64,000 bases of DNA from Botryllus schlosseri (Eukaryota). This document shows, piece by piece, positions 1,269-43,354 of the stretch. Location: contig CM119373.1 in NCBI GenBank assembly GCA_051294905.1, forward strand, positions 1,428,001 to 1,492,000, in the 5' to 3' direction. Under the pieces are notes generated by a model. It saw nothing but the letters and a program-made list of their open reading frames with translations, had not been told where the DNA came from and did not search any database. The position numbers and the translations under genes are program-made. Within the stretch, counting starts at the first letter, position 1. Every line of letters begins with the position of its first letter.

Positions 1269-1282
1269 TAATAATAATAATA

Positions 1283-2623: not shown

Positions 2624-2640
2624 AATAATAATAATAATAA

Positions 2641-9016: not shown

Positions 9017-9350
9017 GTATTGATTCTCATATCGTTATCTATACCCTTGTAGAAGTATATATTCACCTTATCCTAATTAGCAATATCTGCATCCAATCAT
9101 TGGCGGTGTCACAACCGATTCACACCAAGAAAATCACCGATTCAATGTTTAATTATAGATAACTAACATACGGATGGATGAGGGGCTCAGTCATTACACT
9201 TGAATAGGCCCAGACCTAATGATGAGTCGGCTAAAACCAGCATTATTGGTAGCCGCATACTTGGCGATACGAACCCTGAAATGCAATAAAACTAGTTTTC
9301 ACTGAAAGCTAGTGTCAGTAGTTAGTATGATCGGTCGTGAGGTGCGTGGG

Positions 9351-9600
9351 GCTCTTATGGCGGGGTGGTGAGCGGCTGGAAAACCGGGGGTGGTGAGCGG
9401 CTCCTTATACCTTATGGCGGGGTGGTGAGCGGCTATTGTGTCTTATGGCGGGGGTGGTGAGCGGCTCTTATTTCTTATGGCGGGGGTCGTGAGCGGCTGG
9501 AAAACCGGGGGTGGTGAGCGGCTTTTATGTCTTATGGCGGTGGTCGTGAGCGGCTATTGTGTCTTATGGCGGGGCGACATGCGGCTATTGTGTCTTATGG
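9351..9600 (+). repeat. GC-rich subterminal tandem repeats of element 1 (mirror at ~22536-22785)
   Basis: Repeated CTTATGGCGGGGTGGTGAGCGGCT / GGAAAACCGGGGGTGGTGAGCGG units. Confidence 0.9.
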
Positions 9601-12600
9601 ATGCGGGATAGCTCGCACGCGGCTTCGTTGTTGGCATGTCGTACTTCGTGTTGAATATGTATCAAGTAAATAGTCATGTGATTGGTCCTTAGGTAATGTG
9701 TATATTCCAAATTACGGCGAGTACGACAATGATATATCGTTATTCTTATGGGCACGGCGATGATTCGTACTTTCGTTTATAGACTGCGGGTGGCATGTCG
9801 TACTTTCAGCAAAAAAGGTGTGAAATAGTTTGCTAAGTCTAGGAATCACTTGCAAGGTAATGTTTGGGTAATTAGATTACCACAGAGCCGGCGTAGACGG
9901 CAATTCGAATATCAACAATAACCACGCTCACAAACTAACAGTTCAAAAATGTGTGAAATAGTTTGCAAAACTCCGCGATCGCCCACAAGATAATGTCTCG
10001 GACATAACCATCTTTAGTGACTTGGTGTTACAGGCATATCGATCACTCACGCGGTGAAATTTTCGTAAGCAGTTTGGCACAGAGCTTGATTTCACTCGTA
10101 AGATTTAATAAGTAACGAATAACAGACCGCCAGTGTCGGTAACTTGAATAGCGACAAATTGTCACTTATTTCCGCTCTAACCCTAATCCTTTGTGAAGTG
10201 AACGCTTATTCAAAAGGGTGTGATATAATTTTAAAATCCGACGACCACTCACCGGATAATGCTTCAGACGCTCACAAGGTAATATTTCGGTAATTAGTTT
10301 GTCCCAGAACCGTCGCAGGCGGTGATTCGAAAACCAACAATTTGTCACTCGCCCGCGATCGCTATATGTTTCACACCTCCAGAATAGTGGCTGACTTTAG
10401 TTGCGTGATAAGATCCATGAAAATATTCAATCAATGTGTTAGTTTGTCAACTTGAAATGAAACTCACTACACAAATCAAGTCGATTCGTATCTGAATGTT
10501 TTAAATCGGTACAACTCTAATCCTTTGACAAATCCCTTAACGCGTTTTTGTTGAATCGACCGTAACCCGAATATTACTGACGCCGACTTTCAGCCGCATC
10601 GAATTATTCGCACATTCCGCACCACTGTTTCACACTTATAGAATCAATACAAGAATCAAGAATCACAAGTATGTGCATTACACAGTTATTGTCTTTATTA
10701 ACTTGAAATCAAACACTTAACAAAAACACGCAACTAATCATTTGGCAACTCTAGCATTACCAAAAAATTCCAGTATTGTTGATTGGAAATCCTTGAGTCA
10801 TTATTATCAAAAATGTTATAGTACCGCATCGGAATCCATTCGCGGGATGTACTAAAGGTAAATCCAGATAATCCAAAATGAAATATTTGGACTTTGACAA
10901 ACATGACTACCAACTTTGATCCAGTCACATTTCAAGATCATACTTTGAAACAATCCTTGAAACTTACAACTCTATTCACGACTGAGTTTTCCGTTTATCA
11001 AATAGAGTTTCAGCAAATACTATCGCGATATTTTAATGTGTTACTACACACAATAGAATCAATCAATGAAATAGCACCTGTTGTAAATATTTCTAACTTG
11101 ACAACCACGATCGACTTGTGACGCGATGAGTTAAATCGGAATATTTCAATCTATTTGTCGAAACCTTGAACAAACTATCAGGTTATTTTTTGTTGCAATC
11201 GAGTGAACGGAAATAGTATTACGTCTCAACATTTCAACATCTTCCCATACACAAAAGAGTAAAATACAAAAAACCTTGTCAAGTCAATCCGTTTGTAACT
11301 TACCCAACCAAAACAAAAAGTATCCTTACGAAAAGTAGACAAGACTACGCAAGTAATCACTACAACCAACAAACATATCAAGTTCGGTTTTAGGCATATA
11401 CCACCAACTCGTCTTATTGGAATGTCAGCAACTCTTTACGGTCGTAGTTACAACCACATAAACTAATTTACCCTGCCCACACGTCATGATCATTCCTGAA
11501 ATCAACACAAACTCGACCACTGACTTGAGTTAACCACAAAACGGCATCAAGTTTTTAATCCACGTATAGCTGACAGATTATTCGAATACATCGATGGAGA
11601 ATATTATTGAACTCGTCGGTATTGTTACTTCAACAAATTACACCGACTGCGAAAGTTAATATGGAATGGTAAGACTTGATCACATATTTGTTGAACACAG
11701 ACATGACAAAGAACATGATCGGGATTTTATAAACTAGTCATATTACTTTTCACATCTATCAATATCAGAATACAAGTCATCAAACTTTTTGTTAAATGTA
11801 ACATAGCACTTTTGGAATCGGATTCGTTATAGTCGTACAAATTGTATTAAACCCAACATCAAAACAAAAGGACTTTTTTAGTTCATTGAAATCAAACCAT
11901 TCGTCTTCGACTTGTGCTTTTTTAGATTGCCCGCGACAATTCGTTTCGAGTGAGTTGTAACCAAAGTCAAGATATCTTTGTGTCCACAGATATGGAAGAT
12001 GAATATAGCTAACACAATCACGAATCGACGTTTCAGAGTATTTCACGGATGTAATAAACTTGTTAGTGTCACCTATCTAAAAGTACGCACGCGTTCGATT
12101 TCCATACCGACTGTTGCGATGTTTAGGATTCACTTACAATAACCACGGGTGAGGATTTAACATCAACGTCGTTACTGGTGGTATTCACAACAGAGAATCG
12201 AAACATTACACAGTGTGAAAATATATCTTTGATATCAAAGCATTATCCCAAGTATACGATTAATAGTCAACTCCGTTCACACTTTCTATAGAACGTGCTA
12301 AATGTAAAATATCAGGAGGTTGCACTCTAAGACTTTGATCATTACAAAAGTAAATTGGAATATGTTTGCTGGATGCATTCAATTCAGCTAGAAATGTCTA
12401 GTGCACAACAATCGTAATATCAAGGAAGTACTTGCTATCACTAAACGTGTTTTGTATCGTTGTTCATTTGTAGTATTTATTGAAATTGTTTTTGAACACT
12501 CAAATAATAATTCCCGACATGAAACCAAGCCGCTGAAAGTCGTTACCATAACAAAGAAACAATTTGTACGATGTTTGGCAAATGTACCCTATAGTTAGGT

Positions 12601-14289
12601 GTACTAGAATTATTTGTGTAACACATACACCGACAATGCAATCGAAATTTTTTCCGTTGTCATTCGCTAAAGTAAATGTCATCACAATACTCTGTCACTA
12701 AAAGACGTTACTCGGACGTGCTTGAATTCTAGGCATAGTTCTGATTTACCCAACACAAGACCCAAGGACAACCCTAGTTTCAGTCGAACACAGATATCCA
12801 AAATATCGCACACTTCGCTATTCCTAAAGCGCAAACAGCCGATATAAAATATTACTGGTTGTGTTGTTGCGGCATCATCTTCACAATATCACCCTCAATA
12901 CAAATGATGTTTATGTGTAAAATGCTATTGATTTGAATCACACCCACCTGACGGAAGAGGATTTACTCAATCTTTACAAAATGGATATTGACCAACATCA
13001 CATCGCCGGATTGTATCTGTTTTGCTGGATACGAGTTATGTTAGTTTAACAGTAAACAAATTTCACCCTCTTGGATTATGAACTCAATGCGTTAGCAGTC
13101 ATTCAATATTTTGTTTGTGTCAACTAATAGTTACGTTGTATGATACGACTGATGACCCCCGCGACTTTTCAGACCCCAATATGAAAGATATTTACATCAC
13201 ACGAAATACTCCACTCGACATTCTCACACTACGAAACTAAAGAATGGTTGGTTAGACTATACAAACTGTTTTGGTATCACAAGAACTTTTTTTACACGAA
13301 TGGTCACGCATCTAAATATTCAAATAATCCAACAGACAATTATAATACTTACAGAAATATCATAGTTCTTGTAACAAAGTTGTATGTGTACAATGTTTAT
13401 CGTAAGTCCTACACATTCATGATATCCGACCGAGTTTGACTTTTAGAAAACATTATACCGACATCGCGACATCTTTCAAAATCAAAACCATGGTCACTGC
13501 TTGAGATACCTACCATGTCATCACAGTAATCCAGTTACTTCCACAAAAGATTATGTATTCGACTTACGTTCCACAAATCTAACGCGCAAAACAATTTACT
13601 TTGCTAACGAAAAGTGCTTAGTCATCATATGGTTGTCCTCACAACAATGCAACTAAAACATACTATCATACAAAATGGTGGTTATAGTTTGCACACCAAC
13701 GGTACATCGTACAAGTAACAAGTCTCGAGAATCTGTTAATTGAAAAAAAACGTGAAAGTGTTTCTCTTGCGCCAAGTCGTTATGTTGACGAAAGCGTATA
13801 TTGTGATATCACGATCAATTTGCATTCGTTGGTCACAAACTGTCACTACTCTAAATAATTCTTTTTCACTCAAACACAAAAGCATACTTGTCACCATTCG
13901 TTTTCATCAAACACGAGTTCAAGAAACTTACTTACCACGACATGAATTGTTATTTTTATGTTGAGTAAATAGGTAATAATTAATTCAAGTAACACTATAT
14001 CAACATCATCGAGCTGTGCGAATAGATTTACAGGTGGTCTTGTGGTTTTAATCGAAGCATACAGCATGGTCTAATGTAGACTCTTCTCTCTTGTACAGCA
14101 ACTCGCTAATCGAAATGCATGCATTCACATTTGAACAACGATCTTGTTTCGTCGCACCAAAAATATGTTCACTGTCACAATACTCTGCACATAACGTGCA
14201 AATCCTTTTCACCCTCGTAATAGTATACCAACGACCACCGACGACAACGTTTAACAATACCAACGACACTGGAAACACTGAACCCACGA

Positions 14290-15140
14290 CACTTACCCAA
14301 GTAAAAATACATTTTCCTTTGGCTACATGACGCTCACCAGAGTAAAAAATATCATTATCACCTGGAGATCCACCGTTACCCGAACAACAAAACCATTTTC
14401 CTTTGGAGATCTATCGTTTACCCAGTGTAACAATACATTTTCACATGGTGATCCATCGTTTACCCTGAGCAACAAACCTTTTTCACTTGGAAATATATTT
14501 TTTCCCTGGGTAACAAACCTTTTTCACTTGGAAATATATTTTTTCCCTGAGTTACAAACCATTTTCACTTGGAAATATATTTTTTCCCTGAGCAACAAAC
14601 CCTTTTCACTTGGAAGTATATTTTTTCCTGGAGCAACAAACGTTTTTCCACTTGGAAATATATTTTTCCCTGAGTAACAACCCCTTTTCACTTGGAAATA
14701 TATTTTTACCCTGGATAACAAACCCCTTTTCACTTGGAAATCTATTTTTGCCCTGGATAACAAACCATTTTCACTGAGTACCAATACCGTTTTCACTTGG
14801 AAATATATTTTTTCTCTTGGTAACAAACCTTTTTCACTTGGAAATATACTTTTTCTCTGGTTAACAAACCTTTTTCCCTGAGAAACAAACAATTTTCACT
14901 TGGTGGTCCATCGTTTACCCGAGTAAAAATATCATTTTCTTTTGGAGATCCGGCGTTTACCCAGTGTAACAATACATTTTCACTTGGAAAAATACTTTTA
15001 CCTAGAGTAACTAATCATTTTCTCCTGGGTAACAAATCCTTTTCATCTGGAAACTATCATTTACCTGAGTACCAATACCGTTTTCACTTGGAAATCTATC
15101 TTCTCCTTGGGTAACAATATCATTTTCGTTTTGAAAACTG
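14290..15140 (+). repeat. ~40-bp minisatellite in element 1 (mirror at ~16996-17846)
   Basis: About 20 units of TTTTCACTTGGAAATATATTTTTTCCCTGAGTAACAAACC. Confidence 0.92.
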
Positions 15141-18100
15141 ATAACCACACCGGCCAATTTGATATTTTTGTATATTGTTACAACGGGCAGTGACAAAATA
15201 TACACCAACAACGGCTCCGGTACATCTGTCTAATCAAATATTCACTTGCTCTGATGCATCCCATCAAAATCATCGGTTACTCACATACAATAACAATGAG
15301 CTGTTGTACATCGACATGTATGTTTTCGGAATTGGTGAATAAAGAGGTTTCCGATATGTCCGTGATGTCCGGGTTCGTGCTTTGGATTTTCCAGAGTCAA
15401 AATGTCTGAATAAAACACCTCCTCGACTTTGGTAACTGGTTGATACACGGATAATGGCGTTTGGAAAACGGATGAATTTATGTTCCCCATCGCGCTAACA
15501 ACTCCGAGTTACTTGTGAGTTTCCTCAGGTCTGTTTACTATATTGTGTCTTTACTGATCAATACATGTCGCTCCAGTCAGCTGAAACCGGATCACTAATA
15601 TGAGAAAGTGTGCGGGGGCCTGATCCGGATATTCACTCATGAACCAACGAGCAATATTCAAGTAAACATGCTACAGACCGTGTTTTGTCTCCATGAAAAA
15701 TACCAATGCATACACCACCACATACAAGTAACGTCACGATTGTTCACAAGTATTCGCGTAAACGAGGTATACATACAATGTGTCGGTGTACAAACATCAT
15801 GGAAAACAAATTCATGTTCTCAAGTCTCATCATGCGACGACTCTGTACATTCAATGTGGGTATAGATGACACACGGCATGATACAACGGACAGTGCGTTA
15901 TGCATACCGATATATTCTCAGTCAAATATGCGAACCATACACAACCATATACCCCGATTTTCGCTGAATATCCACAACACCAACAAATCTGTACATTTCT
16001 TTTCCCTCAACCTTGACGATAGAGTTGACCTCCCAATGTACCAATCGAGTGTATGGTTCATCAGGTGTAAAATCCAAATCAAATGTCACCAAGGTATCGT
16101 TTTTCATTTTTAATATTTCCACTGCCGCATCTTGTCTGTGTCGTAAAACCACGGCGTGGGGCCAGAGGAATCTATGGACAGTTACGCGTAGTCCCATATT
16201 TACTCGTGGATATGGTTAGGTTATGACGACGTTTTCTCAATGGTCTGTGTGGGTGCACCGTTTCAATACGTAGCTGGATCAACTAGATCAAAAGTTTCCA
16301 ACCGTGTTTTATAACGACCTGTAGAATTACGAGATAGCACCCTCTTGCGGTGTGATTAACACGAAATAAACCTTCAACTCGCAGAGACACACCTTGGATT
16401 ACATTATCTAATCGTAATCGAACTCGAGATTCACACACACACACAGAGTCCCTGTTTACGATTTCAATCCGGAGTCACTGCTCACGATGTTTATCTGTAG
16501 TCCGGATCCGGATCAGGCCCCCGCACACTTTCTCATATTAGTGATCCGGTTTCAGCTGACTGGAGCGACATGTATTGATCAGTAAAGACACAATATAGTA
16601 AACAGACCTGAGGAAACTCACAAGTAACCCGGAGTTGTTAGCGCGATGGGGAACATAAATTCATCCGTTTTCCAAACGCCATTATCCGTCTATCAACCAG
16701 TTACCAAAGTCGAGGAGGTGTTTTATTCAGACATTTTGACTCTGGAAAATCCAAAGCACGAACCCGGACATCACGGACATATCGGAAACCTCTTTATTCA
16801 CCAATTCCGAAAACATACATGTCGATGTACAACAGCTCATTGTTATTGTATGTGAGTAACCGATGATTTTGATGGGATGCATCAGAGCAAGTGAATATTT
16901 GATTAGACAAATGTACCGGAGCCGTTGTTGGTGTATATTTTGTCACTGCCCGTTGTAACAATATACAAAAATATCAAATTGGCCGGTGTGGTTATCAGTT
17001 TTCAAAACGAAAATGATATTGTTACCCAAGGAGAAGATAGATTTCCAAGTGAAAATGGTATTGGTACTCAGGTAAATGATAGTTTCCAGATGAAAAGGGT
17101 TTGTTACCCAGGAGAAAATGATTAGTTACTCTAGGTAAAAGTATTTTTCCAAGTGAAAATGTATTGTTACACTGGGTAAACGCCGGATCTCCAAAAGAAA
17201 ATGATATTTTTACTCGGGTAAACGATGGACCACCAAGTGAAAATGGTTTGTTTCTCAGGGAAAAAGGTTTGTTAACCAGAGAAAAAGTATATTTCCAAGT
17301 GAAAAAGGTTTGTTACCAAGAGAAAAAATATATTTCCAAGTGAAAACGGTATTGGTACTCAGTGAAAATGGTTTGTTATCCAGGGCAAAAATAGATTTCC
17401 AAGTGAAAAGGGGTTTGTTATCCAGGGTAAAAATATATTTCCAAGTGAAAAGGGGTTGTTACTCAGGGAAAAATATAGTTCCAAGTGGAAAAAGGTTTGT
17501 TGCTCCAGGAAAAAATATACTTCCAAGTGAAAAGGGTTTGTTGCTCAGGGAAAAAATATATTTCCAAGTGAAAATGGTTTGTAACTCAGGGAAAAAATAT
17601 ATTTCCAAGTGAAAAAGGTTTGTTACCCAGGGAAAAAATATATTTCCAAGTGAAAAAGGTTTGTTGCTCAGGGTAAACGATGGATCACCATGTGAAAATG
17701 TATTGTTACACTGGGTAAACGATAGATCTCCAAAGGAAAATGGTTTTGTTGTTCGGGTAACGGTGGATCTCCAGGTGATAATGATATTTTTTACTCTGGT
17801 GAGCGTCATGTAGCCAAAGGAAAATGTATTTTTACTTGGGTAAGTGTCGTGGGTTCAGTGTTTCCAGTGTCGTTGGTATTGTTAAACGTTGTCGTCGGTG
17901 GTCGTTGGTATACTATTACGAGGGTGAAAAGGATTTGCACGTCTTGTGCAGAGTATTGTGACAGTGAACATATTTTTGGTGCGACGAAACAAGATCGTTG
18001 TTCAAATGTGAATGCATGCATTTCGATTAGCGAGTTGCTGTACAAGAGAGAAGAGTCTACATTAGACCATGCTGTATGCTTCGATTAAAACCACAAGACC

Positions 18101-21100
18101 ACCTGTAAATCTATTCGCACAGCTCGATGATGTTGATATAGTGTTACTTGAATTAATTATTACCTATTTACTCAACATAAAAATAACAATTCATGTCCTG
18201 GTAAGTAAGTTTCTTGAACTCGTGTTTGATGAAAACGAATGGTGACAAGTATGCTTTTGTGTTTGAGTGAAAAAGAATTATTTAGAGTAGTGACAGTTTG
18301 TGACCAACGAATGCAAATTGATCGTGATATCACAATATACGATTTCGTCAACATAACGACTTGGCGCAAGAGAAACACTTTCACGTTTTTTTTCAATTAA
18401 CAGATTCTCGAGACTTGTTACTTGCACGATGTACCGTTGGTGTGCAAACTATAACCACCATTTTGTATGATAGTATGTTTTAGTTGCATTGTTGTGAGGA
18501 CAACCATATGATGACTAAGCACTTTTCGTTAGCAAAGTAAATTGTTTTGCGCGTTAGATTTGTGGAACGTAAGTCGAATACATGATCTTTTGTGGAAGTA
18601 ACTGGATTACTGTGATGACATGGTAGGTATCTCAAGCAGTGACCATGGTTTTGATTTTGAAAGATGTCGCGATGTCGGTATAATGTTTTCTAAAAGTCAA
18701 ACTCGGTCGGATATCATGAATGTGTAGGACTTACGATAAACATTGTACACATACAAATTTGTTACAAGAACTATGATATTTCTGTAAGTATTATAATTGT
18801 CTGTTGGATTATTTGAATATTTAGATGCGTGACCATTCGTGTAAAAAAAGTTCTTGTGATACCAAAACAGTTTGTATAGTCTAACCAACCATTCTTTAGT
18901 TTCGTAGAGTGAGAATGTCGAGTGGAGTATTTCGTGTGATGTAAATATCTTTCATATTGGGGTCTGAAAAAGTCGCGGGGGTCATCAGTCGTATCATACA
19001 ACGTAACTATTAGTTGACACAAACAAAATATTGAATGACTGCTAACGCATTGAGTTCATAATCCAAGAGGGTGAAATTTGTTTACTGTTAAACTAACATA
19101 ACTCGTATCCTGCAAAACAGATACAATCCGGCGATGTGATGTTGGTCAATATCCATTTTGTAAAGATTGAGTAAATCCTCTTCCGTCAGGTGGGTGTGAT
19201 TCAAATCAATAGCATTTTACACATAAACATCATTTGTATTGAGGGTGATATTGTGAAGATGATGCCGCAACAACACAACCAGTAATATTTTATATCGGCT
19301 GTTTGCGCTTTAGGAATAGCGAAGTGTGCGATATTTTGGATATCTGTGTTCGACTGAAACTAGGGTTGTCCTTGGGTCTTGTGTTGGGTAAATCAGAACT
19401 ATGCCTAGAATTCAAGCACGTCCGAGTAACGTCTTTTAGTGACAGAGTATTGTGATGACATTTACTTTAGCGAATGACAACGGAAAAAATTTCGATTGCA
19501 TTGTCGGTGTATGTGTTACACAAATAATTCTAGTACACCTAACTATAGGGTACATTTGCCAAACATCGTACAAATTGTTTCTTTGTTATGGTAACGACTT
19601 TCAGCGGCTTGGTTTCATGTCGGGAATTATTATTTGAGTGTTCAAAAACAATTTCAATCAATACTACAAATGAACAACGATACAAAACACGTTTAGTGAT
19701 AGCAAGTACTTCCTTGATATTACGATTGTTGTGCACTAGACATTTCTAGCTGAATTGAATGCATCCAGCAAACATATTCCAATTTACTTTTGTAATGATC
19801 AAAGTCTTAGAGTGCAACCTCGTGATATTTTACATTTAGCACGTTCTATAGAAAGTGTGAACGGAGTTGACTATTAATCGTATACTTGGGATAATGCTTT
19901 GATATCAAAGATATATTTTCACACTGTGTAATGTTTCGATTCTCTGTTGTGAATACCACCAGTAACGACGTTGATGTTAAATCCTCACCCGTGGTTATTG
20001 TAAGTGAATCCTAAACATCGCAACAGTCGGTATGGAAATCGAACGCGTGCGTACTTTTAGATAGGTGACACTAACAAGTTTATTACATCCGTGAAATACT
20101 CTGAAACGTCGATTCGTGATTGTGTTAGCTATATTCATCTTCCATATCTGTGGACACAAAGATATCTTGACTTTGGTTACAACTCACTCGAAACGAATTG
20201 TCGCGGGCAATCTAAAAAAGCACAAGTCGAAGACGAATGGTTTGATTTCAATGAACTAAAAAAGTCCTTTTGTTTTGATGTTGGGTTTAATACAATTTGT
20301 ACGACTATAACGAATCCGATTCCAAAAGTGCTATGTTACATTTAACAAAAAGTTTGATGACTTGTATTCTGATATTGATAGATGTGAAAAGTAATATGAC
20401 TAGTTTATAAAATCCCGATCATGTTCTTTGTCATGTCTGTGTTCAACAAATATGTGATCAAGTCTTACCATTCCATATTAACTTTCGCAGTCGGTGTAAT
20501 TTGTTGAAGTAACAATACCGACGAGTTCAATAATATTCTCCATCGATGTATTCGAATAATCTGTCAGCTATACGTGGATTAAAAACTTGATGCCGTTTTG
20601 TGGTTAACTCAAGTCAGTGGTCGAGTTTGTGTTGATTTCAGGAATGATCATGACGTGTGGGCAGGGTAAATTAGTTTATGTGGTTGTAACTACGACCGTA
20701 AAGAGTTGCTGACATTCCAATAAGACGAGTTGGTGGTATATGCCTAAAACCGAACTTGATATGTTTGTTGGTTGTAGTGATTACTTGCGTAGTCTTGTCT
20801 ACTTTTCGTAAGGATACTTTTTGTTTTGGTTGGGTAAGTTACAAACGGATTGACTTGACAAGGTTTTTTGTATTTTACTCTTTTGTGTATGGGAAGATGT
20901 TGAAATGTTGAGACGTAATACTATTTCCGTTCACTCGATTGCAACAAAAAATAACATGATAGTTTGTTCAAGGTTTCGACAAATAGATTGAAATATTCCG
21001 ATTTAACTCATCGCGTCACAAGTCGATCGTGGTTGTCAAGTTAGAAATATTTACAACAGGTGCTATTTCATTGATTGATTCTATTGTGTGTAGTAAGACA

Positions 21101-23553: not shown

Positions 23554-23899
23554 TAGGCTTACCATATTTTGGAAATCAAAAAAGAGGACACTTTTTCAGA
23601 AATTTGCAACTTGCAAAACCGGAGTGGAATTCTCAAAATTCGGTTAATTTTTCCCACATTGTGATCGGTTGACTAAAAAAAAAAAAAAAAAAAGTCATCT
23701 TTTCGCTCAGAGCTAAATTCACCGTTTTTCAACCGTCGGAGCTTCACTTCTGTGCCAATATGTGGCATATCACTCGCAATTTGCTCTAAATCTGCTCTAA
23801 ATCCTAAAAAAGAGGACAAAATCTCAAAAAAGAGGACAAAAGGGCGTCCTCCGAGGACACTTTCAAAAAAGTCAAAAAAGAGGACGTATGGTAAGCCTA
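23554..23899. mobile_element. hAT MITE with GAGGAC subterminal repeats
   Basis: TIRs taggcttaccata / tatggtaagccta; 8-bp TSD ttattata. Confidence 0.88.
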
Positions 23900-26800: not shown

Positions 26801-27379
26801 TTTTCGACATAAGATAAGCGTGAAATGTACAAATTTCTATGTTGCGCAAATACCACAAACTTTGCTTGCTTTCAGACCCGGCAACTAAATGCAAGACAGA
26901 ATTTACGCAAAAGTTGCTATTCTGAAAATTTTGTCAAGGTAATAGTTTAAAAGTTTACACTTGAGCACTACGAAATGTTCAAGTACTTTATCTTTACACG
27001 ACGTTTTTTGTAAAATGAATACCAATATTATTGAAAAAATAAAAAATAAAAAGAGCGAATAATTACATTTTATCCCGGAACGCAACAAGAAAAATCGTAT
27101 GAATTTGTAAACTAATAAACATTAATAATTCTACTTGTACACTTTTCCACACTTTATAACACTTTAAGTAGTACTTAACAGTTTCAGTTTTAAATAAAAT
27201 ACGGAATATAAACTAATCGAAAAATTCGGTTACCAATTTCGCGTAGGCAATGCATACAAATGAGGAAAGTTACATCAACGCGTGTTAACTAGTTGTATCG
27301 AGTTATCGAATGACTTTTTTTTCTTTACATCAAAATAACTAGAGTGTGTAACTACATTAAAAACGTATCTAAATGAGCT

Positions 27380-31500: not shown

Positions 31501-34485
31501 GACAGTTTCAGTTTTAGATCAAATTTGGTGAGACTTTAAATTTTGAAGTAGTTTGAGCTTACGTTTGTATCACCTTGACAAGTATCATTATCAGACATGA
31601 AAATGATACTATCACCTAATACAGAAGTTAACACACGTCAATGTGCTTCGGAATTCACGAGAAATTGCTTACTAAGAGAAGTATATTCTTGTATACACAA
31701 TAGTGGAGAGAATCTTTAAAATGTAGTAAGCAGGTCGATGGGTATTCATTGAGTTGTATAAGCATAAAAAACATTCCCGCGCGCTCCTAAACCTAACACT
31801 TCCTACCCTACCACCTTATACTAAGACGCGCGCGGGAATGTTTTTTATGCTTATACAACTCAATGAATACCCATCGACCTGCTTACTACATTTTAAAGAT
31901 TCTCTCTACTATTATGTATACAAGAATATACTTCTCTTAGTAAGCAATTTCTCGTGAATTCCGAAGCACATTGACGTGTGTTAACTTCTGTATTAGGTGA
32001 TATTATCATTTTCATGTCTGATAATGATACTTGTCAAGGTGATACAAACGTAAGCTCAAACTACTTTAAAATTTAAAGTCTCACCAAATTTGATCTAAAA
32101 CTGAAACTGTCAAGTACCGATAAAGTAGTCTAAACCCTAGTCGCTTTTTACGTGGAGGGAGTACTTGTATATTTTGGAGTACTCAAGTATAGGTTTGGCC
32201 TGCTTGCGCTATACTAAATGAAGTGATTGACTATTTACACTGCATCTACTTCTATTTCAGAGTTTTTCGGTTTTCGAGCAAACTATACCTTCAATACTTA
32301 CTTTTTAACTCACTCGGAAATCATGACTTCTTGTACTTTAGTAGGACTTTACTGTTACTAAAATGTTGAAATGTACTTTTTGTCGGTGGGCCAGTGGTCT
32401 TGGTGAGTGGTGTCAGTTTCATCTATATCCAACGAAAAGCTACTTGAGTACTTTACGGGTTCGTATCATCGCAAATAATATATTCTAAACATGTTTAGAT
32501 AGCGAGGAGTGAAATGGACAAATTTTATCTAAAACTGAAACTGTAAAGTACCGATAAAGTAGTCTAGAGTATTTTTTATGTTTATTCAGCTCAACGAATA
32601 TCTTCATATTGGCCTGCTTACTACATTTTAAAGATTTTCTACGCTAGAAAAATCGCTCTAACATGATAAGTATATTATAATTAATCTTATCAGCGCGGCA
32701 TAGTACATTCGAGTAAATTCATTTAATTAGCTTATGTTTATGAAATTATTTGGTTTCCGAATTCTATCTAAAACGGAAACTGACGAGTATCGGTAAAAGC
32801 AGTCTTAAACCGTAGTCACTTATTACGTGGAGGGAGTCGATAGCGAACTACTCGTGTATTTTGTAGTACTCAAGTATAGGTTTTATCTGCTTGCGCTATA
32901 CTTAATCAAGTGATTAACTATTTACACTGCATCTACTTCTATTTCAGAGTATTCGGTTTTCAGGTAAACTATACCTGCAATACTTACTTTTTAACTCACT
33001 CGGAAATCATCACTTCTTGTACTTTACTCGAAATTTACTGCAACTAAATGTTGAAATGTACTGTCATCAGCGGTCTTGATGAGTGGTGCTAGTTTCATCT
33101 ATATCCTTCGACGCATTTTTGCGCTGCAGAATGACTTATCGCAATAAAAATAACAAAAATACTTCGATAATTTGCGAACTCTCACTGCACAAAAACGTTA
33201 GTACTCTAGGTCTATTTCTGTTTAATACTGTAGCTATCATGAAGTTGATGTACTCCAATATCATAAGGACTAGAGAGTATTTGGTACATGTAGGCAAAAA
33301 ACCTACTTGGGTATTCTCAAGACGTACGAGTACTTCTATACTTAACAACTCTGGAAGTTAGCGCAGTTTGTGGAATTTGTATGCAATCGAAATTTGCGTG
33401 CTTCTCACATACCTTATGTTAATAGTTTTCCTTTTCTATCTACTTTACAAGATTCAGTGTAGAAGTTTAGTGAAAGTGTAAGAGTTTAGCAAAAGCATTT
33501 TTTGATAATAGCACTTGTCAAGGTGATACAAACGTAACCTCAAACTACTTTAAACTAATTGTACTTGTATTCCAGCAAAATTACGAATCGTTGAGTATCG
33601 AGCGATAGCCTCTATCATACTTGCGGAAAATAGGGATTTGGTACACGAGTATCAAATTAGAGTAAATTGAGTACACTTGAGAGGTTATTAGTGATTCTGC
33701 TGGAGTTTATATGAAGGGAAGTCCTGATAAAACCTTGATTATTTCAGAAAAGAATAGAGGGCTTCTTTCGATATTTTGATAGTCTTCGTCGTAATGTCGG
33801 ATGTCGTGAAATTGTATACATGCCATCTAGTACTACGGAAAATGTCAAGGCTGGTACTCAATGGTTCTGTTAGTAATTATATGGAATGTGTGGGAATCGA
33901 ATTGGAGCGTAAAGTATGCTCCTATGGCATAGAGCCCTACGAAATGAGTCCACATACCCCGTAAAATTCCACTCCAGGCGCTGCGGCTTAGCTCAAGCGT
34001 AAAAGTATTTCGTACTTTAGGTGTCAAATCATCTTTTTTGTGATAAATAAGCATAGGGAGAATTAATCAGAAAATTACCGTAGGCATCGATACATTGAGT
34101 GAAATGGGCTTCCTTATCTTAAATTGAAACGGACAGAATAAATCGAAACAATTTGCAGATTGGGTAGGTATCGTATGTTTAGTGTCGTTGGTATTGTTAA
34201 ACGTTGTCGCAGGTAGCCGTTGGTATACTATTACGAGTGTGAAAAGGATTTGCACGCCCTGTGCAGAGTATCGCGGTAGTGAACGTATTTTTCGCGTGAC
34301 GAAACACGATCGCTGTTTAAATGTTAATGCATGCATTTCGATTACCGAGTTGCTATACAATAGAGATGACTCTACATTAGATCGTGCAGTGTACTTCGAT
34401 TAAAACCATAACACCACATGTAAATCTATTCGCACAACTCGATGATGTTGGTATAGTGTTACTAAAATTAATTATTACCTATTTA

Positions 34486-35750
34486 CAGAGGTGGTCAAAG
34501 TAGTCAAGAAAACTACTCAAGTAGAAGTAGAAGTAGCGACGAAAAAATCTACTCAAGTACGAGTAGAAGTACTTTTTCAATAAGCCCCCTAAAACTACTT
34601 GAAGTAGAAGTAAAATTGACTGACGTTAAATCTACTTTTAAGTAAGTAAGTAGTTTTGAAAACAGTCATAATTCGTACGCATGGACTGTCAAAAGCTGCG
34701 AATTCAGCTATGCTGTAGGTGCAGAGAGCTTGATTCGTATTGATGCATTCCAGGAGGTATCAATTTTCGACAGCATAAGCATTGTTTCGCGCCATGGGAT
34801 GAAAATTATAGTATTGATATGAGAATGCAATACTAACCCTTTGTTTACTAGAAGACCCCGTTAGATATGGCACCCCACCCCATATTATAAGGCCCAAGTT
34901 CAGGCGAAGAGCAATACGTAGAAGTTGTATCGGATACGGTTTCATCACTTTTCGCGATTAGGAAATAACAAATATTGTGCATCGTAAAAGTTATATTTAG
35001 TGTATACCTTTTATTTCGGAAAATAGAGGCATTGCTACACTTGCTTTTAAGGTTCAACATGTTTGTTCTGCAGACAAAAGAACTGAAAATAATTAGAACT
35101 CAAAGTATGATACTCGCAATTGAAAGTGAAACACAAATACCACTTTTAAACAGCAGAAAATATATTTCATGTAATTTGTCCATAAAGCTTCAAAGGTGAT
35201 CTTCTGAAACAGGTGTAGCGTTAAACAGCTGGATATTCGAGATTAGCAAGACACGTAATGTGCTGCTAGATTACGATGTGATTGGTAACTGCTAGATTGC
35301 GAATCGGTAGTTTCAAACGTCATGATGGGCCATATTTACTGTGATGAAATATTTAATATGGGCGACAATGAGGTGTGAGAGGAACCAAGCAATCCGGTAC
35401 CTGAATTATATTCACTGATACTTTCATGAAAACATATTTGTCATTCCACCACTACTATGCGCGAATCACAACAAAATTATAGGATTTACTTGACTTTTAT
35501 GAAAATTGAATGTTGATACTCCGTGAAAACAGCCCCGAAATTCCTCAGGCTATCTTTCACATTAGGGGTAATAAACTACTTCTACTTGACAAACTGAAAA
35601 TAGCGAAAAGTAAGTAAGTAGATCACAAAATTTTACGAAGTAGAAGTAAAAGTAGAGAAAATCAGATCTACTTGAGTAAGTATCAGAAGTAGAGGAAAAC
35701 TACTTGAGTACTTCCAAAAAGTAGAAGTACTTCGTTACTGACCACCTCTG
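34486..35750. mobile_element. hAT (Tol2-like) MITE, in the right arm of element 2 only
   Basis: TIRs cagaggtggtca / tgaccacctctg; TSD cctattta; tactcaagta/agtagaagta subterminal repeats; empty site at 29117-29124. Confidence 0.93.
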
Positions 35751-36967
35751 CCTATTTACACAACATAAAAATACCAATTCATGTCGTAGTAAGTAAGTTT
35801 ATTGAACTCGTGCTTGATGAAAACGAATGGCGACAAGTATGCTGTTGTGTTTGAGTGAAAAATAATTATTTAGAGTAGTGACAGTTTGTGACCAACGAAT
35901 GCAAATCGATCATGATATTACAATATACGCTTTCGTCAACATAACGACTTGGCGCAGGAGAAACACTTTAACATTTTTTCAATAACTGGAATCTTGAAAC
36001 TTGTTGCTTGTGAGATTTACAGCTGGTGCACAAAGAGGTTAGCGACCATTTTGTACGATAGTATGTTTTAGGTGTATTGTTGGGTGGATAATGATATGAT
36101 GACTCAGTACTTTTCGTTAGCAAAGTAAATTGTTTTGCGCGTTAGATTTGTGGAAAGTAAGTTGAATACATACTATTTTGTGGAAGTAACTAGATTACCG
36201 CGATATCACTGGTAGGTCTCTCAAGCAGTCACCGCGGTTTCAATTTTGTAAGATGTCGCGATGTCGGTATAATGTTTTCTAAAAGTCAAACTCGGCCGGA
36301 TATCATGACTGTGTAGGACTTACGATAAACATGTATTGATATTAAAGTTGACTATGTATAGGTACGTGCTACGCTACGGAAAAACAGATTTAGCCAAAAG
36401 CCTGTATAGAACTGCGTTGGTTTTGAAAGTGTTACATCATGAAATGCCTGACGAAATTTGGTATGGTGCATTGTTATTATGTCCTACAACTGGGTACCAA
36501 CGTTCAAGGTGAGAATTTAAGGTTTAGCATGCTAATTCTGTTATTAAAATTGACTATGTATGGGTATATGCTATGTTCACGAAAAACAGATATGTGTAAA
36601 AGTCGGTATTCGACTGCGATAGTTTCAAAGGTGTTCCATCATTAGATATGTGATGAAATTTAGCATGGTTCATTGCCATAATGTCCTACAACTACGTATC
36701 AAGTTTAGAGTTGGGATTCAATGTTAAGCATGGTAATTCCGTTATTAAAGTTAGCTATGTATGAGTACGTGCTATACGCCCCCGCAAAACAGATATACGC
36801 AAAAAGTCGATGTAGAGCCGCGTTAGTTTTAAAGTTGTTCCATCATGAAATGTGTGATGGGATTTGGTATGGTGCATCGTTATAGTGTCCTATAATCGCG
36901 TACCAACTTTCAAGGTGGGAATTCAATGTTTAACACGGTAATTCTGCTATTAAAATTGACTATGCAT

Positions 36968-39225
36968 CAGACATGGGGTGATTACTTTATGAATGTAATC
37001 GATTGCGATTACGATTACTTCGGAATCACGCGATTACGATTACGATTACGATTACAGCAAAATCAGGAAGTAGTCGATTACGATTACGATTACATTGAAA
37101 AAGTAATCACGATTACTCACGATTACATTTGTTTTGCTTAGGACTATAATCTTAAATGATATATGGGAAGACAATACAAGGATTGTGATGAAAAGGCTTA
37201 ATGAGATATCAACTTTCTTCATACATCTTGCGTCATTTGCTTATTACGTCATAATATATCAATTGCCAACTTTATAGTGGATGATTTATCGCATCCAACG
37301 ATTTGCATTATTGCCAGGTCTTTACCTGCCGCACCCCAAATTCCTTAATAGAGTGGGGAGCGTGCTCAAACGGGACTCATAAGTATTTCGTAAACCAACA
37401 TAAATTATAGAGTATTTTCGAGAATTCAATTAATTCTTGTAAATGTTTTTCGAGCTTTGCGATTCAAATATTTCTAGTACAGGGGTCATCAACGCGGACC
37501 AAATGAGTCGCCCGCGGTCGCTGTAGTAGTGGTGGCTTTTGGGGTGGGCGAGGTGGGCGGTCGCCAGGGGGGGCTGGTCGAAGGGCTCCCCTATTTGGAT
37601 TATGCGCTTTTTTCAAGGATAATAACGGATAAACATGGAAATCCGTGTAAGGCAAGAATAGGATTCCGTACAGATGTGTCAATCAGCATCAAATCTCTGC
37701 ATTTGTTAGAAAAGTACCATATCCCGATAATCATCACGTCTCTGCATGTGGTAGAATTACTTAGTTTTAATGTCGTCTATCTTTGCACACATGAAAAAAT
37801 AGACATGGCCGAATCCAGCACCTGGCCAAACCTTGATAGATAGATAATAATAACAGATACGAAAGAGGGGTCTGGGGGGCGAAGCCCCCCATAAGTTACG
37901 GATAGATACTTATAGGGGCCCCGGTAAGTCTCGCTCAGCCCCCCCCCCGTTCGTATGGCCACCACTGCGCTGTAGCAATGCAATGTAATAACAATGCAAA
38001 TGTCACCCGGCGCATCCACAAATGAATAAAGCCATGACAATATGTGTGTGCGTTTCACAAAAGATATTCTTTTAGTCTGCTACGTTTGGGCGAGTATAAT
38101 ATCTTGTGATTATACAACGGACTGGAGGTCGCGAATTAACAAGATACAGTAATTATAACAACATACCCGATGCTATGAATATGAATTACGTGCCCCAGCT
38201 TTACAGGTAAATCTGACACTCGGGGCTCAGAGAGGTTATAAATGAATAGTAATATAATGCAATTACCATTATTATTGACGAAATTCACTTTTGAAAATTG
38301 ACCAACGGTTGGACAGGGGAATTGCTGTTTTGGCTGAATTGCTGATTCTAGCTACCTACAACCCACGCTAACATGTCAGGCTAAATAAGCGGATGGCTAT
38401 GGCGGCAGGTCCAAATGCTAAGTAACGAACTGTGAAATAACGATTGACGCCCGTTTCAAGTAGTTATATGAGAATAAGATATGGTTAACATAAAAATTCT
38501 GCCTTCAACTTAATACATATACAGCGAACTGATGTTACGAGAAACGGCTAAGCACGGCTCGGTTATGATATATATCAGCAGCTGTTTATTTGTAATGCTT
38601 CGTTGTGGAAACTGCAATGTCTTATTCGACGAGTACAGAATTCCGAATCTTCGTCAGGTGCACGTGCGTAAGTAGGCCTCCTGCTCGCCAAGCAGCAATG
38701 GTAAACTGCGTTTAACTAAGCATACAACCAAACATTAATACATAATAAGTTACTATTTGAAACTATAGGCAGAGTGGTGATCAATATCCTGCTGCGAGGT
38801 AGCGGCTTCTGTAGTGTATTGATAACCTGATATACACCACGGGAGGTATTCTTACAATCACACTACAATGTCCATCGCATGTCTGTTTACTATGTGTGGA
38901 TACTTGTTGCGCAATGACGAGCGGAGCTAATACTTCTGACGTAATAATGAGTCAGTGGCGTTTGAAAACAGACGTTTGTGCTATCGCTAACGTGGTATAT
39001 TATCTCATTCTTGTTCACGAATATTCAGTTTATATCATAGTCCTTGTACAAACAAAAAGTAATCGTTCTTTCACAAACTAATCGATTAGATATGGGAAGT
39101 AGTCGATTACGATTACGATTACTTCGGATTTTTTTCGAATGTAATCGATTGCGATTACGATTACTTCAAAATGCTGTAATCGTCGTAATCGATTACGATT
39201 ACTAATCGCGATTACCCCATGTCTG
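36968..39225. mobile_element. hAT MITE with (CGATTA)n subterminal repeats, in the right arm of element 2 only
   Basis: TIRs cagacatgggg / ccccatgtctg; TSD ctatgcat at 36960-36967 and 39226-39233. Confidence 0.93.
37527..37967. mobile_element. hAT MITE nested in 36968-39225
   Basis: TIRs tagtggtggc / gccaccactg; TSD cgctgtag. Confidence 0.85.
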
Positions 39226-42200
39226 CTATGCATAGGTATATGCTATGTTCACGCAAAACAGATATGCTTAAAAGTCGGTATTCGACTGCATTAGTTTTAA
39301 AGGTGATCCATCATTAGATGTGCGATGAAATTTAGCATGGTGCATTGCCACAATGTCCTACAACTACGAATCAAGTTTAGAGTTGGGATTCAATGTTAAG
39401 CATGGTAATTCCGTTATTAAAGTTGACTATGTATAGGTACGTGCTATACGCTCCCGCAAAACAGATATACGCAAAAAGTCGATGTAGAGCCGCGTTAGTT
39501 TTAAAGTTGTTCCATCATGAAATGTGTGATGGGATTTGGTATGGTGCATTGGTATAGTGTCCTATAATCGCGTACCAACTTTCAAGGTGGGAATTCAATG
39601 TTTAACACGGTAATTCTGCTATTAAAATTGACTATGCATAGGTATATGCTATGTTCACGCAAAACAGATATGCTTAAAAGTCGGTATTCGACTGCATTAG
39701 TTTTAAAGGTGATCCATCATTAGATGTGCGATGAAATTTAGCATGGTGCATTGCCACAATGTCCTACAACTACGAATCAAGTTTAGAGTTGGGATTCAAT
39801 GTTAAGCATGGTAATTCCGTTATTAAAGTTAACTATGTATAGGTACGTGCTATACGCTCCCGCAAAACAGATGTACGCAAAAAGTCGATGTAGAGCCGCG
39901 TTAGTTTTAAAGTTGTTCCATTATGAAATGCGTGAAGAAATTTGGTATGCTGAATAATCACAATGTCCTACAACTACGTACCAAGTGTCAAGGTGAGGAG
40001 TCACATATTAGCATGGTAATTCTGTTATTAAAGCTGACTATGGATATGTACATGCTACCGAAAACAGATTTAGGCAAAAGTTGCTATAGAACTGCGTTAG
40101 TTTTAAAGTTGTTCCATCATGAAATGTGTGATGAAATTTGGTAGGCTGCATAATCACAATGACCTGGAGCTCATTTAGATACGTTTTTAATGTAGTTACA
40201 CACCCTAGTTATTTTGATGTAAAGAAAAAAATCATTCGATAACTCGATACAACTAGTTAACACGCGTTGATGTAACTTTCCTCATTTGTATGCATAGCCT
40301 ACGCGAAATTGGTAACCGAATTTTTCGATTAGTTTATATTCCGTATTTTATTTAAAACTGAAACTGTTAAGTACTACTTAAAGTGTTATAAAGTGTGAAA
40401 AAGTGTACAAGTAGAATTATTATTATGTCATGAATAAGTAGTTTACAAATTCATACGATTTTTCTTGTTGCGTTCCGGGATAAAATGTAATTTTTCGCTC
40501 TTTTTATTTTTTATTTTTTCAATAATATTAGTATTCATTTTCCAAAAAACGTCGTGTAAAGATAAAGTACTTGAACATTTCGTAGTGCTCAAGTGTAAGT
40601 TTTTAAACTATTACCTTGACAAAATTTTCAGAATAGCAACTTTTGCGTAAATTCTGTCTTGCATTTAGTTGCCGGCTCTGAAAGCAAGCAAAGTTTGTGG
40701 TATTTGCGCAACATAGAAATTTGTACATTTCACGCTTATCTTATATCGAAAACATAAGTTAGTTAAAGTATTTCGAATCATGGGTATGAATGATTTTAAA
40801 AAACCCAAATATGTCGCATCCAAACTTCGTGAATATTTTCGATTAGTTTTTTCTACTTTAAAGGATTCAATGTAGAAGTTTCGAAACTTGCATGAATTAC
40901 AAGCTACATAATTCAATTAGTTAACACGCGTTGATGTAACTTTCCTCATTTGTATGCATAGCCTATGCGAAATTGGTTACCGAATTTTTCGATTAGTTTA
41001 TATTCCGAATTTTATTTAAGTACTACTAAAATTGCTGCAAAATATGAAAAAGTACACAAGTAGAATTATTACTATGTCATGAATAAGTAGTTTACAAATT
41101 CATACGATTTATCTTGTTGCGCTCCGCGATAAAATTGTAGTACTAAAATACAAACTCGGACTAAATCATGAATGCGTAGGACCTACCTTAAACATATATT
41201 GTGCACAAACAACTTTTTACAAGAACTATAAAATTCCACTCCAGGCGCTGCGGCTGAGCTCAAGCGAACAAGTATTTCGGACTTCAGGAGTCAAATTGTC
41301 TTTCTTATCGTAAATTAACATAGGGAGAATTATTCAAGAAATTTTGTAGAGTACCGTAGGCATCGATACATTGAGTGAAATGGGCTTCCTTGTCTTAAAT
41401 TAAAACGGGCAGAATAAATCGAAACAATTAGCAGAGTCCCGTAGGCTTCAAGACATAGCTCAGGCTGAGATCATAGTCTAATAACGAGGGCCTCGAGTGG
41501 GAAGTTATAGGAAGCAAGAATCGTTGTAAAAGTGTTGAAACTTAATTGCATCTGTAATTCCGCCATTAAAGTTGACTACGCATAGGTATGTGCTACGCTC
41601 CCGCAAAACAGATTCACGCAAATGTCGGTATAGAACTACGTTGGTTTTAAAGTTGTTTAATCATGAAATGCGTAACAAAATTTGACATGGTACATTGCCA
41701 TAATGTCTTAAATGCAATTATACTGCCAGATAGTTATAGCGAGAGGGTTTCGATGGTGACGTACTTGTATAATGCACATTTTGGAGAGATTAAGTAAAGG
41801 AATGATCTCAGATAAATCCATTAAATTAAGGTATAGGAAGTAGCTATTTACGAATAAAAGTTAGTATTCTAGGTCTATATTTCTGTTTAATACTGAAAAT
41901 GTCATGAAGTTGAAGCAATTTGAAATCATAAACACTTTAGTATTAGGTACATATACGCGAAAAGCTACTTTAGTATTATGATGGAGTGCAAATACTTGTT
42001 TACTTATCAACTTTGAAGGCTTGCGCAGTTTGTGGTGTGATACGCAAAATTAGTGTGTTCAAATCAGACCTGCCGTAAACATAGTGATGTCGCATTAGTC
42101 CTAAATACACATGATAGAATATCAAGGAAAAGTATCATCTAACGTATAATGAATGTGATTTATTTCTCGGAAGCAAGTCATTATCAAAACATAGTGATCA

Positions 42201-43354
42201 AAATTATCGCAGAGCAATACCGATTTTGCGTAAATTCCGTTATGCGTCTTACTACGTTACTGGGGATTATGTAGTTAGTTACGAAATTAGGTGTGCTATC
42301 TTCCCAATCGGTATGGAACAACATCAAAATCATCACAAAGCAATATCGACTTTTGCTTCGTAACTGCGAGTTAGGAATCGTTAACTTTATATTTTGTGAA
42401 GTAGAGAGTAGTTTAAGGGTATGTTAGTATAACCTTGACGAGTGCTATTGTCACACTCGATCATCATCTTTAAATCAGGGTTATCTCAATGATGTTGACT
42501 AAATTTACGGCTTCAGAACGCGCTAATTAGATCTAATCGTTATAACGCCGGGGTTCACGTACAGGCATCGGAAGTGTTTCTATAATTAAAGTCCCGCGAA
42601 TCGCACGCCTGCGGCTATAGTTCGTTCGATTATTTTCGCTTGGGATTCGCGTATATGCTACTGAGCTGTTACGACTTTAGAAAATTATTGTTCGATTATT
42701 TTCGCCTTGGGATTCGCGTATATGCTACTTAGCTGTTACGGCTTTAGAAAATTCTACAAGACTATTCGGAACGCGCACATGCAAGTGACTTGTTTTCGTA
42801 GCTCCGAACTGGAGAATCGCTTGCCTGCGTCCAATGAAAATAAGTCGTAAAATGTTGAGGCTGCAGAGACCGTAACTTGTATACATAAAATCAAGTTTAA
42901 AAATATGGACGGATGAGTTATCTCTGGCCAATAGAGTAATATAACCGCCTATAGTTTGGTGGGGTATTGCTATAATGTATATCCAAACAATCGTTGCAGA
43001 CTCTGAATGTTACCAAGGTCCTTAACACAAAAAAAAAATCATACATCAGAAGCGTAGGGATTGATATTATCAAGTCGCAGCGCTCAAAATCGCAAAGGTA
43101 TTCAATACATATTGCTAAATACACATGGAAAATCGGTATTGAAATTCACAAAGCATTGCAGTCGCCTAATTCCTCTGTGATGACATCATAAACCAGGCAT
43201 AGTCCGACGCAAATTATATTATGAGAGTGTTTACATTCTAAATAAATGGGCGGATGATGTGGCAATGTAGGCGTGGCAATTAAGGCGACGTGGCCTTCTG
43301 TGATTGGACGGTAACAAACGAATCCCATCCGACTACTCAATTATTCTTTCACAG

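Follow-up and report, generated by a model that had tools for sequence, protein, structure and literature searches.

Two palindromic Polinton-like elements in one intron of a NACHT- and LRR-like gene of Botryllus schlosseri

The window, by which we mean the whole stretch of 64,000 nt of Botryllus schlosseri DNA analysed here, holds part of a gene with NACHT and LRR-like exons. The NACHT exon lies upstream of the window (G000:C3:1422171-1423298) and matches PF05729 at E=1e-14. Exon A starts just upstream of the window; its 3' part (1-134, +) is 75% identical to a paralogue exon and carries a GT donor. Exon B (7834-8156, +) is 72% identical to two paralogues. Exon C (8852-9016, +; 165 nt, phase 0) has an open frame between AG and GT and is 50-69% identical to its paralogues. 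The LRR-like exons D (43355-43522, +; phase 0), E (57415-57582, +) and F (59510-59677, +) are 168 nt long each, and F is followed by a 42.5-kb intron that leaves the window. Exons G-L further downstream were provisionally placed in the same gene, on the sole ground that the DNA between them yielded no NACHT, A, B or C exon. A profile built from 16 LRR-like exons matches the LRR protein PDB 4r5d at E=3e-5, and the Pfam search returned no LRR match among the repeats of the gene. The NACHT match and the profile match bear out the original prediction of an immune-receptor-like gene.

The closest named relatives of this gene are ascidian. It is one of dozens of paralogues, and at least 150 matches to D-like exons were found. 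The seven host exons examined are all still open, and dN/dS is 0.14 for the NACHT exon and 0.23-0.56 for the others. These ratios indicate that the gene has been under purifying selection in the long term and is thus not old debris. Such long-term selection counts against the reading given below, in which the elements persist under weak selection. One downstream LRR exon copy in the gene model is broken, lacking the acceptor and the first 18 codons. Besides the 42.5-kb intron, the model also contains stretches of 13.9, 20.8 and 21.4 kb, and the inverted repeats in these regions do not exceed 246 bp.

The intron between C and D (9017-43354, +) is 34,338 nt long and has GT...AG ends. Two palindromes, E1 and E2, together account for 95.0% of its length. 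Without the two elements, and with each 6-bp duplication counted once, 1,693 nt remain, which corresponds to a 20.3-fold inflation. The values predicted originally (an intron of about 34.3 kb, 95% of it palindromic, grown about 20-fold from about 1.7 kb) agree with the recomputed coordinates and arithmetic, and the flanking exons are, as had been claimed, open, in phase 0 and joined to canonical splice sites. The order of C and then D is backed by four paralogues, in which this intron measures about 1.0, 1.4, 7.2 and 8.3 kb. The residual host DNA between the elements (22826-24201, +) contains a branch-point-like CTAAT at 24174-24178, and a small inverted-repeat element lies inside the residual 1.7 kb at about 23555-23900. 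Beside exon D, 11 nt of the native acceptor remain (43344-43354, +), comprising a pyrimidine tract and the AG. E2 is therefore 11 nt from the 3' end of the intron, or 17 nt if the duplication is counted, and the native branch-point zone now lies 19 kb upstream. This insertion so near the 3' end of the intron is the new feature of the locus.

E1 (9317-22819; 13,503 nt, no strand assigned) consists of two arms (9317-15630 and 16506-22819) around a spacer of 875 nt, and the arms differ by 26 mismatches over 6,313 aligned bases. It is flanked by the 6-bp target-site duplication AGTGTC (left copy 9311-9316, +; right copy 22820-22825), and direct 6-bp duplications likewise flank seven of the nine E1-type copies retrieved. 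The spacer holds a 91-codon ORF that is antisense to the host gene and conserved in the family (15922-16197, -), with a dN/dS of 0.20-0.29 versus three copies. The Atlas search with its 91-aa product gave no match scoring above 0.78.

E2 (24208-43337; 19,130 nt, no strand assigned) has the same terminal hexamers. Its left arm (24208-31784) and right arm (31828-43337) are separated by a loop of only about 43 nt, so pairing could begin immediately, and the centre folds at z=-53 in the RNA folding computation. The arms show 43 mismatches over 7,566 aligned bases. The stem of about 7.6 kb is interrupted twice by insertions in the right arm only, one of 1,265 nt (34486-35750) and one of 2,258 nt (36968-39225), each with short inverted ends and an 8-bp duplication; we take both to be hAT-like. 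The target-site duplication is CAATTA (left copy 24202-24207, +; right copy 43338-43343), and eight of the nine E2-type copies retrieved have direct 6-bp duplications. Segments of copies at C13 and C1 match E2 with 98-99% identity. In none of the nine E2-type copies does an ORF reach 220 aa, the terminus of E2 does not match the one gene-carrying Polinton copy examined, and no gene-carrying partner was found for it. This lack of a partner counts against a Polinton origin with persistence under weak selection.

Both elements start with AGTAGT and finish with ACTACT. Terminal motifs of (AG)3 or (AGT)2 and a 6-bp target-site duplication are part of the vertebrate Maverick definition, as given in PMC8097293. 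Over its first 458 nt, E1 shares 90% identity with the terminal repeat that bounds a gene-carrying Polinton of this genome (G000:C2:33149836-33166020), and the two elements have a common end. This Polinton is 16.2 kb long with terminal repeats of 800 bp and encodes an rve integrase (E=3e-16) and a chromodomain; a Pox_A32-like ATPase (E=0.002) and PolB_2 (E=1e-4) both fall below the cut-off. A DJR-like capsid look-alike has a score of 0.98, its family being present on 14-30% of the cluster members; searches of PDB and PHROGs did not identify this candidate. A search of the genome with PF03175 gave no match and its control was likewise silent, and the polymerase piece was later found directly. 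E1 and E2 contain no ORF longer than 138 aa and none of the core genes (PolB, rve integrase, ATPase, capsid), and a comparison with the 15 ORFs of the gene-carrying Polinton gave a single match (E=0.008). Exact-motif searches found at least 43 and at least 63 related elements. Within the palindromic copies, arm identity is 98.9-100%, and arms are much more similar within one copy than between copies. The arms show no CpG decay that would point to methylation (1 of 26 mismatches in E1, 1 of 43 in E2). A probable second NLR on C1 harbours, in an intron of 51 kb, another palindrome of this family that is 13,352 nt long. [quoted passage not shown]

We consider it fairly probable (about 65%) that E1 and E2 are palindromic, helper-dependent Polinton derivatives which inserted independently and recently and which persist because selection is weak. 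The two elements would have entered the same intron of the NLR-like gene separately, 1.4 kb apart. As the ends and duplications suggest, the protein-primed polymerase and the integrase of a helper probably copied and inserted them. Mirror symmetry is likely made or renewed during DNA replication, by fold-back or copy-back from one end, and the RNA hairpin would then be a by-product. The host gene is one paralogue among many, its introns are already swollen by other repeats and its LRR exons are frame-symmetric, so the elements may persist here under weak selection; the many D-like exon matches, the long stretches free of long inverted repeats, the broken LRR exon copy and the second NLR on C1 speak for this. 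In a transcribed allele the stems would probably form and probably be edited or diced, a step not needed to explain why the elements are there. With 300-1,400 copies, the expected number of insertion pairs no more than 1.4 kb apart is 0.25-5.5 genome-wide. Under neutrality since insertion, the flanking exons would be intact by chance with a probability of about 0.35, and their intactness is weak evidence for tolerance or selection. NLR clusters show no detectable enrichment of the elements (1 of 106 versus 0.76 expected), which leaves the idea of a special sink unsupported.

A second possibility, which we regard as clearly less probable though serious, is a null or altered filled allele. Here, E2 would cripple the acceptor of exon D, inserted as it is 11 nt from the intron end, or transcripts would terminate inside the elements, where sense-strand AATAAA hexamers occur 5 times in E1 and 15 times in E2; their density of 0.4-0.8 per kb is, however, lower than the 1.15 per kb in the D-E intron. 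As all LRR exons are in phase 0 and frame-symmetric, loss or skipping of D (C to E) would preserve the frame. Alternatively, D may receive a spliced leader by trans-splicing, a process that occurs in tunicates according to PMC4122922, and function may be supplied by close paralogues or the other allele. A 92%-identical variant of exon D with about twofold depth in DNA run X3 fits these proposals, as does the low RNA depth on exon D described next, whereas the open state of all exons examined speaks against them.

Reads of one DNA run and three RNA runs were mapped to the stretch 41200-47900. RNA depth in the bin of exon D (43440-43663) was near zero in all three RNA runs (0, 0.15 and 0.23), although these were sampled at 3-13% and came from animals that may not carry this allele. 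Among the read joints and loose ends listed for this stretch, none falls at the borders of exon D. In RNA, the places with A>G/T>C compared with G>A/C>T numbered 32/20 versus 31/21, 18/22 versus 20/8 and 58/44 versus 50/45, and in the DNA run 51/39 versus 47/31. Relative to the DNA run, RNA thus shows no surplus of A>G/T>C over G>A/C>T, a comparison that is uninformative about editing because the arm reads stem from near-identical copies (E2 is matched on C13 and C1) and other repeats, and because filtering removes reads with heavy editing. No spliced C-D product turned up in protein searches, which is weak evidence.

We regard it as improbable that splicing of the allele depends on the fold itself. 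In such a rescue, nascent RNA would zip from the palindrome centres; E2, as a giant downstream stem, would place the native branch point some 48 nt before the acceptor, and the two stems together would cut the effective intron to about 1.7 kb. The 17 nt of host DNA between E2 and exon D and the short loop of E2 are in favour of it. The filled acceptor has no yTnAy at -18 to -45, and a CTAAT lies in the displaced host DNA at what corresponds to -42, but yTnAy is present in just 14 of 34 paralogue acceptors and its absence thus carries little weight. The displaced DNA weakly resembles the acceptor region of a paralogue, with 224 of 2,000 shuffles scoring equally well. PMC12350175 provides a small-scale precedent from yeast, where zipper and downstream stems assist splicing, and PMC2773006 puts forward the hypothesis of stems formed by repeats (SINE/LINE hairpins) in large introns; the precedent stems, however, measure tens to hundreds of bases, and bulges of 1.3 and 2.3 kb, both on one side, interrupt the stem of E2. 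No C-D junction showed among the reads mapped to 41200-47900, a stretch that covers exon D. The original prediction of dsRNA stems of 6-7 kb holds in that, from the sequence, a transcript through the intron could form multi-kb stems, while the E2 stem is longer than stated and discontinuous. Its further proposal that folding explains tolerance finds no support: the same gene model has a larger intron, of 42.5 kb, and three stretches of 14-21 kb, all without long inverted repeats. Folding as the cause of tolerance is unproven and probably unnecessary. The original prediction does not name the hairpins as Polinton-type mobile elements, whose symmetry probably arises at the DNA level. Just as improbable as fold-dependent splicing is the view that E2 acts as a downstream stem that greatly exceeds those known from yeast in length and that the family is partly invisible to splicing, which would aid its accumulation in genes.

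It is very improbable that E1 and E2 have no relation to Polintons and are instead cut-and-paste transposons of the foldback type. The tandem repeats inside their long arms and their small central ORF are reminiscent of FB/Galileo elements, and Polinton protein remnants are limited to the one match at E=0.008; against this stand the 6-bp duplications, the (AGT)2 ends and the 90% identity to the terminal repeat of the gene-carrying Polinton, by which this reading appears largely refuted for E1. Near-perfect palindromes are a familiar long-read artefact, and assembly from chimeric fold-back reads can be practically dismissed here, as the arms differ in sequence, insertions are present in one E2 arm only, target duplications flank both elements and the same architecture recurs elsewhere in the genome with different flanks.

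Given the displaced branch-point zone, the filled allele is a natural test of ultra-long-range fold-out. If splicing by folding is true, the known range of structure-assisted splicing would grow from hundreds of bases to some 15 kb, the large-intron stem hypothesis of 2009 (PMC2773006) would be tested directly, the spread of giant palindromic elements in genes would have an explanation, and an invertebrate chordate would routinely produce self dsRNA of several kb. Otherwise, two insertions have simply landed in an NLR gene already swollen by repeats, and the interest of the locus rests in the element family.

Polinton/Maverick elements are reportedly the subject of Kapitonov and Jurka 2006. 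In titles and abstract openings, no description of whole-element palindromic Polintons or of a similar intron was found; most subscription journals, Repbase reports and supplements lie outside this coverage, and a prior description is possible. E1 and E2 resemble Polinton/Maverick elements (PMC8097293; review PMC6431247) in their (AGT)2...(ACT)2 ends, 6-bp duplication and size of 13-19 kb, and differ from them in having no polymerase, integrase, ATPase or capsid genes. Their inverted repeats of 6.3-7.6 kb compare with 46-1,447 bp in intact vertebrate Mavericks (PMC8097293) and with roughly 2 kb in the polintons of butterflies (bioRxiv 10.1101/2025.02.07.637071). The Styela clava NACHT proteins XP_077976001.1 and XP_039248824.1 share 33-37% identity and a collinear order with the host gene. 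As in exon-modular NLR LRR domains (PMC6642158), NACHT is followed by frame-symmetric two-repeat exons; unlike there, the repeats escape recognition as LRR by Pfam. Palindromic non-autonomous transposons of C. elegans located in genes are ADAR-edited or diced (PMC7084138), and the long inverted repeats embedded here would likewise yield dsRNA if transcribed, although the stems are much longer and the element class is another. As with the intronic stems of PMC2773006 and PMC12350175, the inverted repeat would shorten the distance from donor to acceptor or from branch point to acceptor. The stems in these two papers, proposed or shown to aid splicing, do not exceed a few hundred bases, whereas the stems that E1 and E2 would form are 6-8 kb long, 99.4-99.6% paired and each derived from a single insertion.

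Self-comparison of the window revealed two giant inverted repeats, the palindromic mobile elements E1 (9317-22819) and E2 (24208-43337), both within the intron between host exons C (8852-9016) and D (43355-43522). This C-D intron (9017-43354) spans 34,338 nt with GT-AG ends, and the two elements together fill 95.0% of its length; without them, 1,693 nt remain. The original prediction of a 34.3-kb intron, 95% palindromic and about 1.7 kb without the elements, matches these values; the canonical splice sites and intact flanking exons it described were also found, exons A-F being open. C precedes D in four paralogues, which makes this order of exons, as well as an originally short intron, plausible; the paralogous introns measure ~1.0, 1.4, 7.2, and 8.3 kb, two of the four not being short.

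The host was expected to be immune-receptor-like, which is supported by a NACHT exon (PF05729, E=1e-14), situated 4.7-5.8 kb before the window starts and sharing 85% identity with a paralogue 0.5 Mb distant, and by exons D, E, and F. The latter are 168-nt phase-0 LRR-like cassettes whose profile matches a PDB LRR protein (E=3e-5), while none of the Pfam LRR models matched them. Among named proteins, the NACHT proteins of Styela clava are most closely related (33-37%), the long-run dN/dS of the gene is 0.14-0.56, and the genome holds at least 150 D-like exons. Downstream lie five more intact cassettes and a duplicate of exon E (G000:C3:1550454-1550567), which lacks the acceptor and the first 18 codons and abuts a short tandem repeat. 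We infer that these cassettes belong to the same gene; no NACHT, A, B, or C exon was found between them and the host exons. Within the A-B intron, the 3' end of a LINE (zf-RVT-like) is repeated in three tandem copies of ~990 bp each (window 562-3629), and a separate reverse-transcriptase fragment lies at 3829-4809. In the DNA read run X3, an exon D variant (window 43412-43573; 92% identical) occurs at ~2x the depth of the exact version, with no equally close match among the assembly matches listed.

The element anatomy, the family, the end in common with a gene-carrying Polinton, and the host gene class are direct observations. The elements probably persist through redundancy of the host gene and skippable exons (probability about 0.65). 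Only the 6-bp duplication and 11 nt separate E2 from exon D. The acceptor as it now stands has no yTnAy at -18 to -45, and the nearest relaxed match lies inside the E2 right arm, where it would be paired. Damage to the allele by E2, which would be compatible with the element account, is conceivable but somewhat unlikely.

The same proximity favours the proposal that RNA stems of E1 and E2 loop out the insertions and bring the splice signals back together, as does CTAAT at the equivalent of -42 in the native intron DNA now displaced upstream of E2; lariat branching would then occur at 24177. As a yTnAy-type motif is present in only 14 of 34 paralogue acceptors and the displaced DNA resembles a paralogue acceptor non-significantly (224 of 2,000 shuffles score as well), a displaced branch-point signal as a special feature is a lead. 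Genome-wide, 1-5 insertions equally close to an acceptor are expected, assuming 150,000 introns. A transcript through the intron would be able to fold into the long stems anticipated, since 611 nt at the E2 centre gave -485 kcal/mol (z=-53) in a folding computation. That folding is required for tolerance is nevertheless improbable. The same gene model contains intron stretches of 42.5, 21.4, 20.8, and 13.9 kb with inverted repeats of at most 246 bp. With arm divergence as a clock, the 2,252 coding bases are expected to have gained ~1 inactivating change in all after the E2 insertion, which gives intact exons a probability of ~0.35 without selection; under arm homogenisation, this value would be smaller and the true age older. 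For 300-1,400 copies, 0.25-5.5 insertion pairs at most 1.4 kb apart are expected across the genome. Depth was 0-0.23 in the bin over the second half of exon D in three RNA runs (read to 3-13%, from animals not known to carry this allele), with no exon D junction among those listed. Finally, symmetry is common to the whole family at any location, hence an RNA-level cause is not needed. One of 106 mapped elements lies inside NLR clusters versus 0.76 expected, which counts against a simple 'junk sink' view; it sits between two LRR exons in a 51-kb stretch (G000:C1:24902536-24953959) with nested palindromes and an intact 13,352-nt E1-type palindrome with its 6-bp duplication.

E1 has 6.3-kb arms that differ at 26 of 6,313 aligned bases, with a spacer of 875 nt between them, and E2 has arms with 43 mismatches in 7,566 aligned bases and a ~43-nt loop. 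Two later insertions (1,265 and 2,258 nt, each with an 8-bp duplication) occur only in the E2 right arm. Transitions are few among the arm mismatches (9/26 in E1, 20/43 in E2) and CpG decay is absent, which suggests unmethylated element DNA. The E1 spacer carries a conserved 91-codon ORF (window 15922-16197, minus strand, antisense to the host gene; dN/dS 0.20-0.29), which is absent from E2 and matched no Atlas family; 15 matches were found among other fetched copies, three with a stop.

Both elements start with AGTAGT, end with ACTACT, and lie between 6-bp duplications, which is the signature described for vertebrate Mavericks in PMC8097293. Searching the genome with each element end (40 of 2,052 and 40 of 818 candidates scored) gave, among those scored, pairs of matches in opposite orientation, separated in most cases by 9-27 kb; exact motifs put the number of related elements at no fewer than 43 and no fewer than 63. 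Direct 6-bp duplications flank 7/9 fetched E1-type copies, the other two lying inside larger palindromes, and 8/9 E2-type copies. Arm identity inside palindromic copies is 98.9-100%, and E1 resembles other copies in patches only (65-91%). A gene-carrying Polinton among the E1-type copies (G000:C2:33149836-33166020) is bounded by terminal repeats of 800 bp and encodes a chromodomain-containing rve integrase and a DJR-like capsid look-alike, as well as, both below the Pfam cut-off, a Pox_A32-like ATPase and a PolB fragment. It has 458 terminal bases in common with E1 (90%), and none of its genes is present in E1. Judged by sequence, the elements appear to behave like non-autonomous Polintons, outside the autonomous class. 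That they are non-Polinton foldback elements is very improbable, and an assembly artefact as the source of the palindromes is close to negligible; E1 and E2 are a real feature. In another palindrome (L026/L027), both arms contain a 214-aa ORF that lies near one end of the gene-carrying Polinton (L025:4945-5598; 95% over 1.55 kb), which shows that an arm descends directly from one Polinton end.

A helper polymerase and integrase would replicate and insert E1 and E2. Mirror symmetry is likely renewed by fold-back copying because the variable terminal segment differs among elements yet matches at both ends of one element (identical in 8/11 pairs, 1-2 base differences in 2/11, 1/11 not comparable). 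In E2-type termini (L089-L118; window 24214-24236), bases 7-24 past the invariant AGTAGT are hypervariable, being distinct in 17/18 elements with a mean identity of 45% versus 81% further in. They look mosaic (all four combinations in 76/136 site pairs), yet within an element the two ends are usually identical; diversifying selection may be the cause, or else template switching at the origin. A further copy (G000:C13:7506499-7519181; L052/L053) matches most of E2 at ~99%; the 43-nt loop is retained, but the inner 2.6 kb on the left is missing, hence its 'spacer' may stem from one-sided deletion, or else E2 from fold-back extension.

The looping-out reading of this intron is a hypothesis that the data do not call for. 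For large introns, looping out has been proposed in print (PMC2773006), short intronic stems were measured in yeast (PMC12350175), gene-embedded palindromes are edited and diced in C. elegans (PMC7084138), and LRRs of human NLRs are exon-modular (PMC6642158); further sources were PMC6431247, PMC4028283, and PMC4122922. Among the titles and abstract openings searched, none described whole-element palindromic Polintons. Inverted repeats are 46-1,447 bp in vertebrate Mavericks (PMC8097293) and roughly 2 kb in butterfly polintons (bioRxiv 10.1101/2025.02.07.637071), whereas those of E1 and E2 are longer than either.
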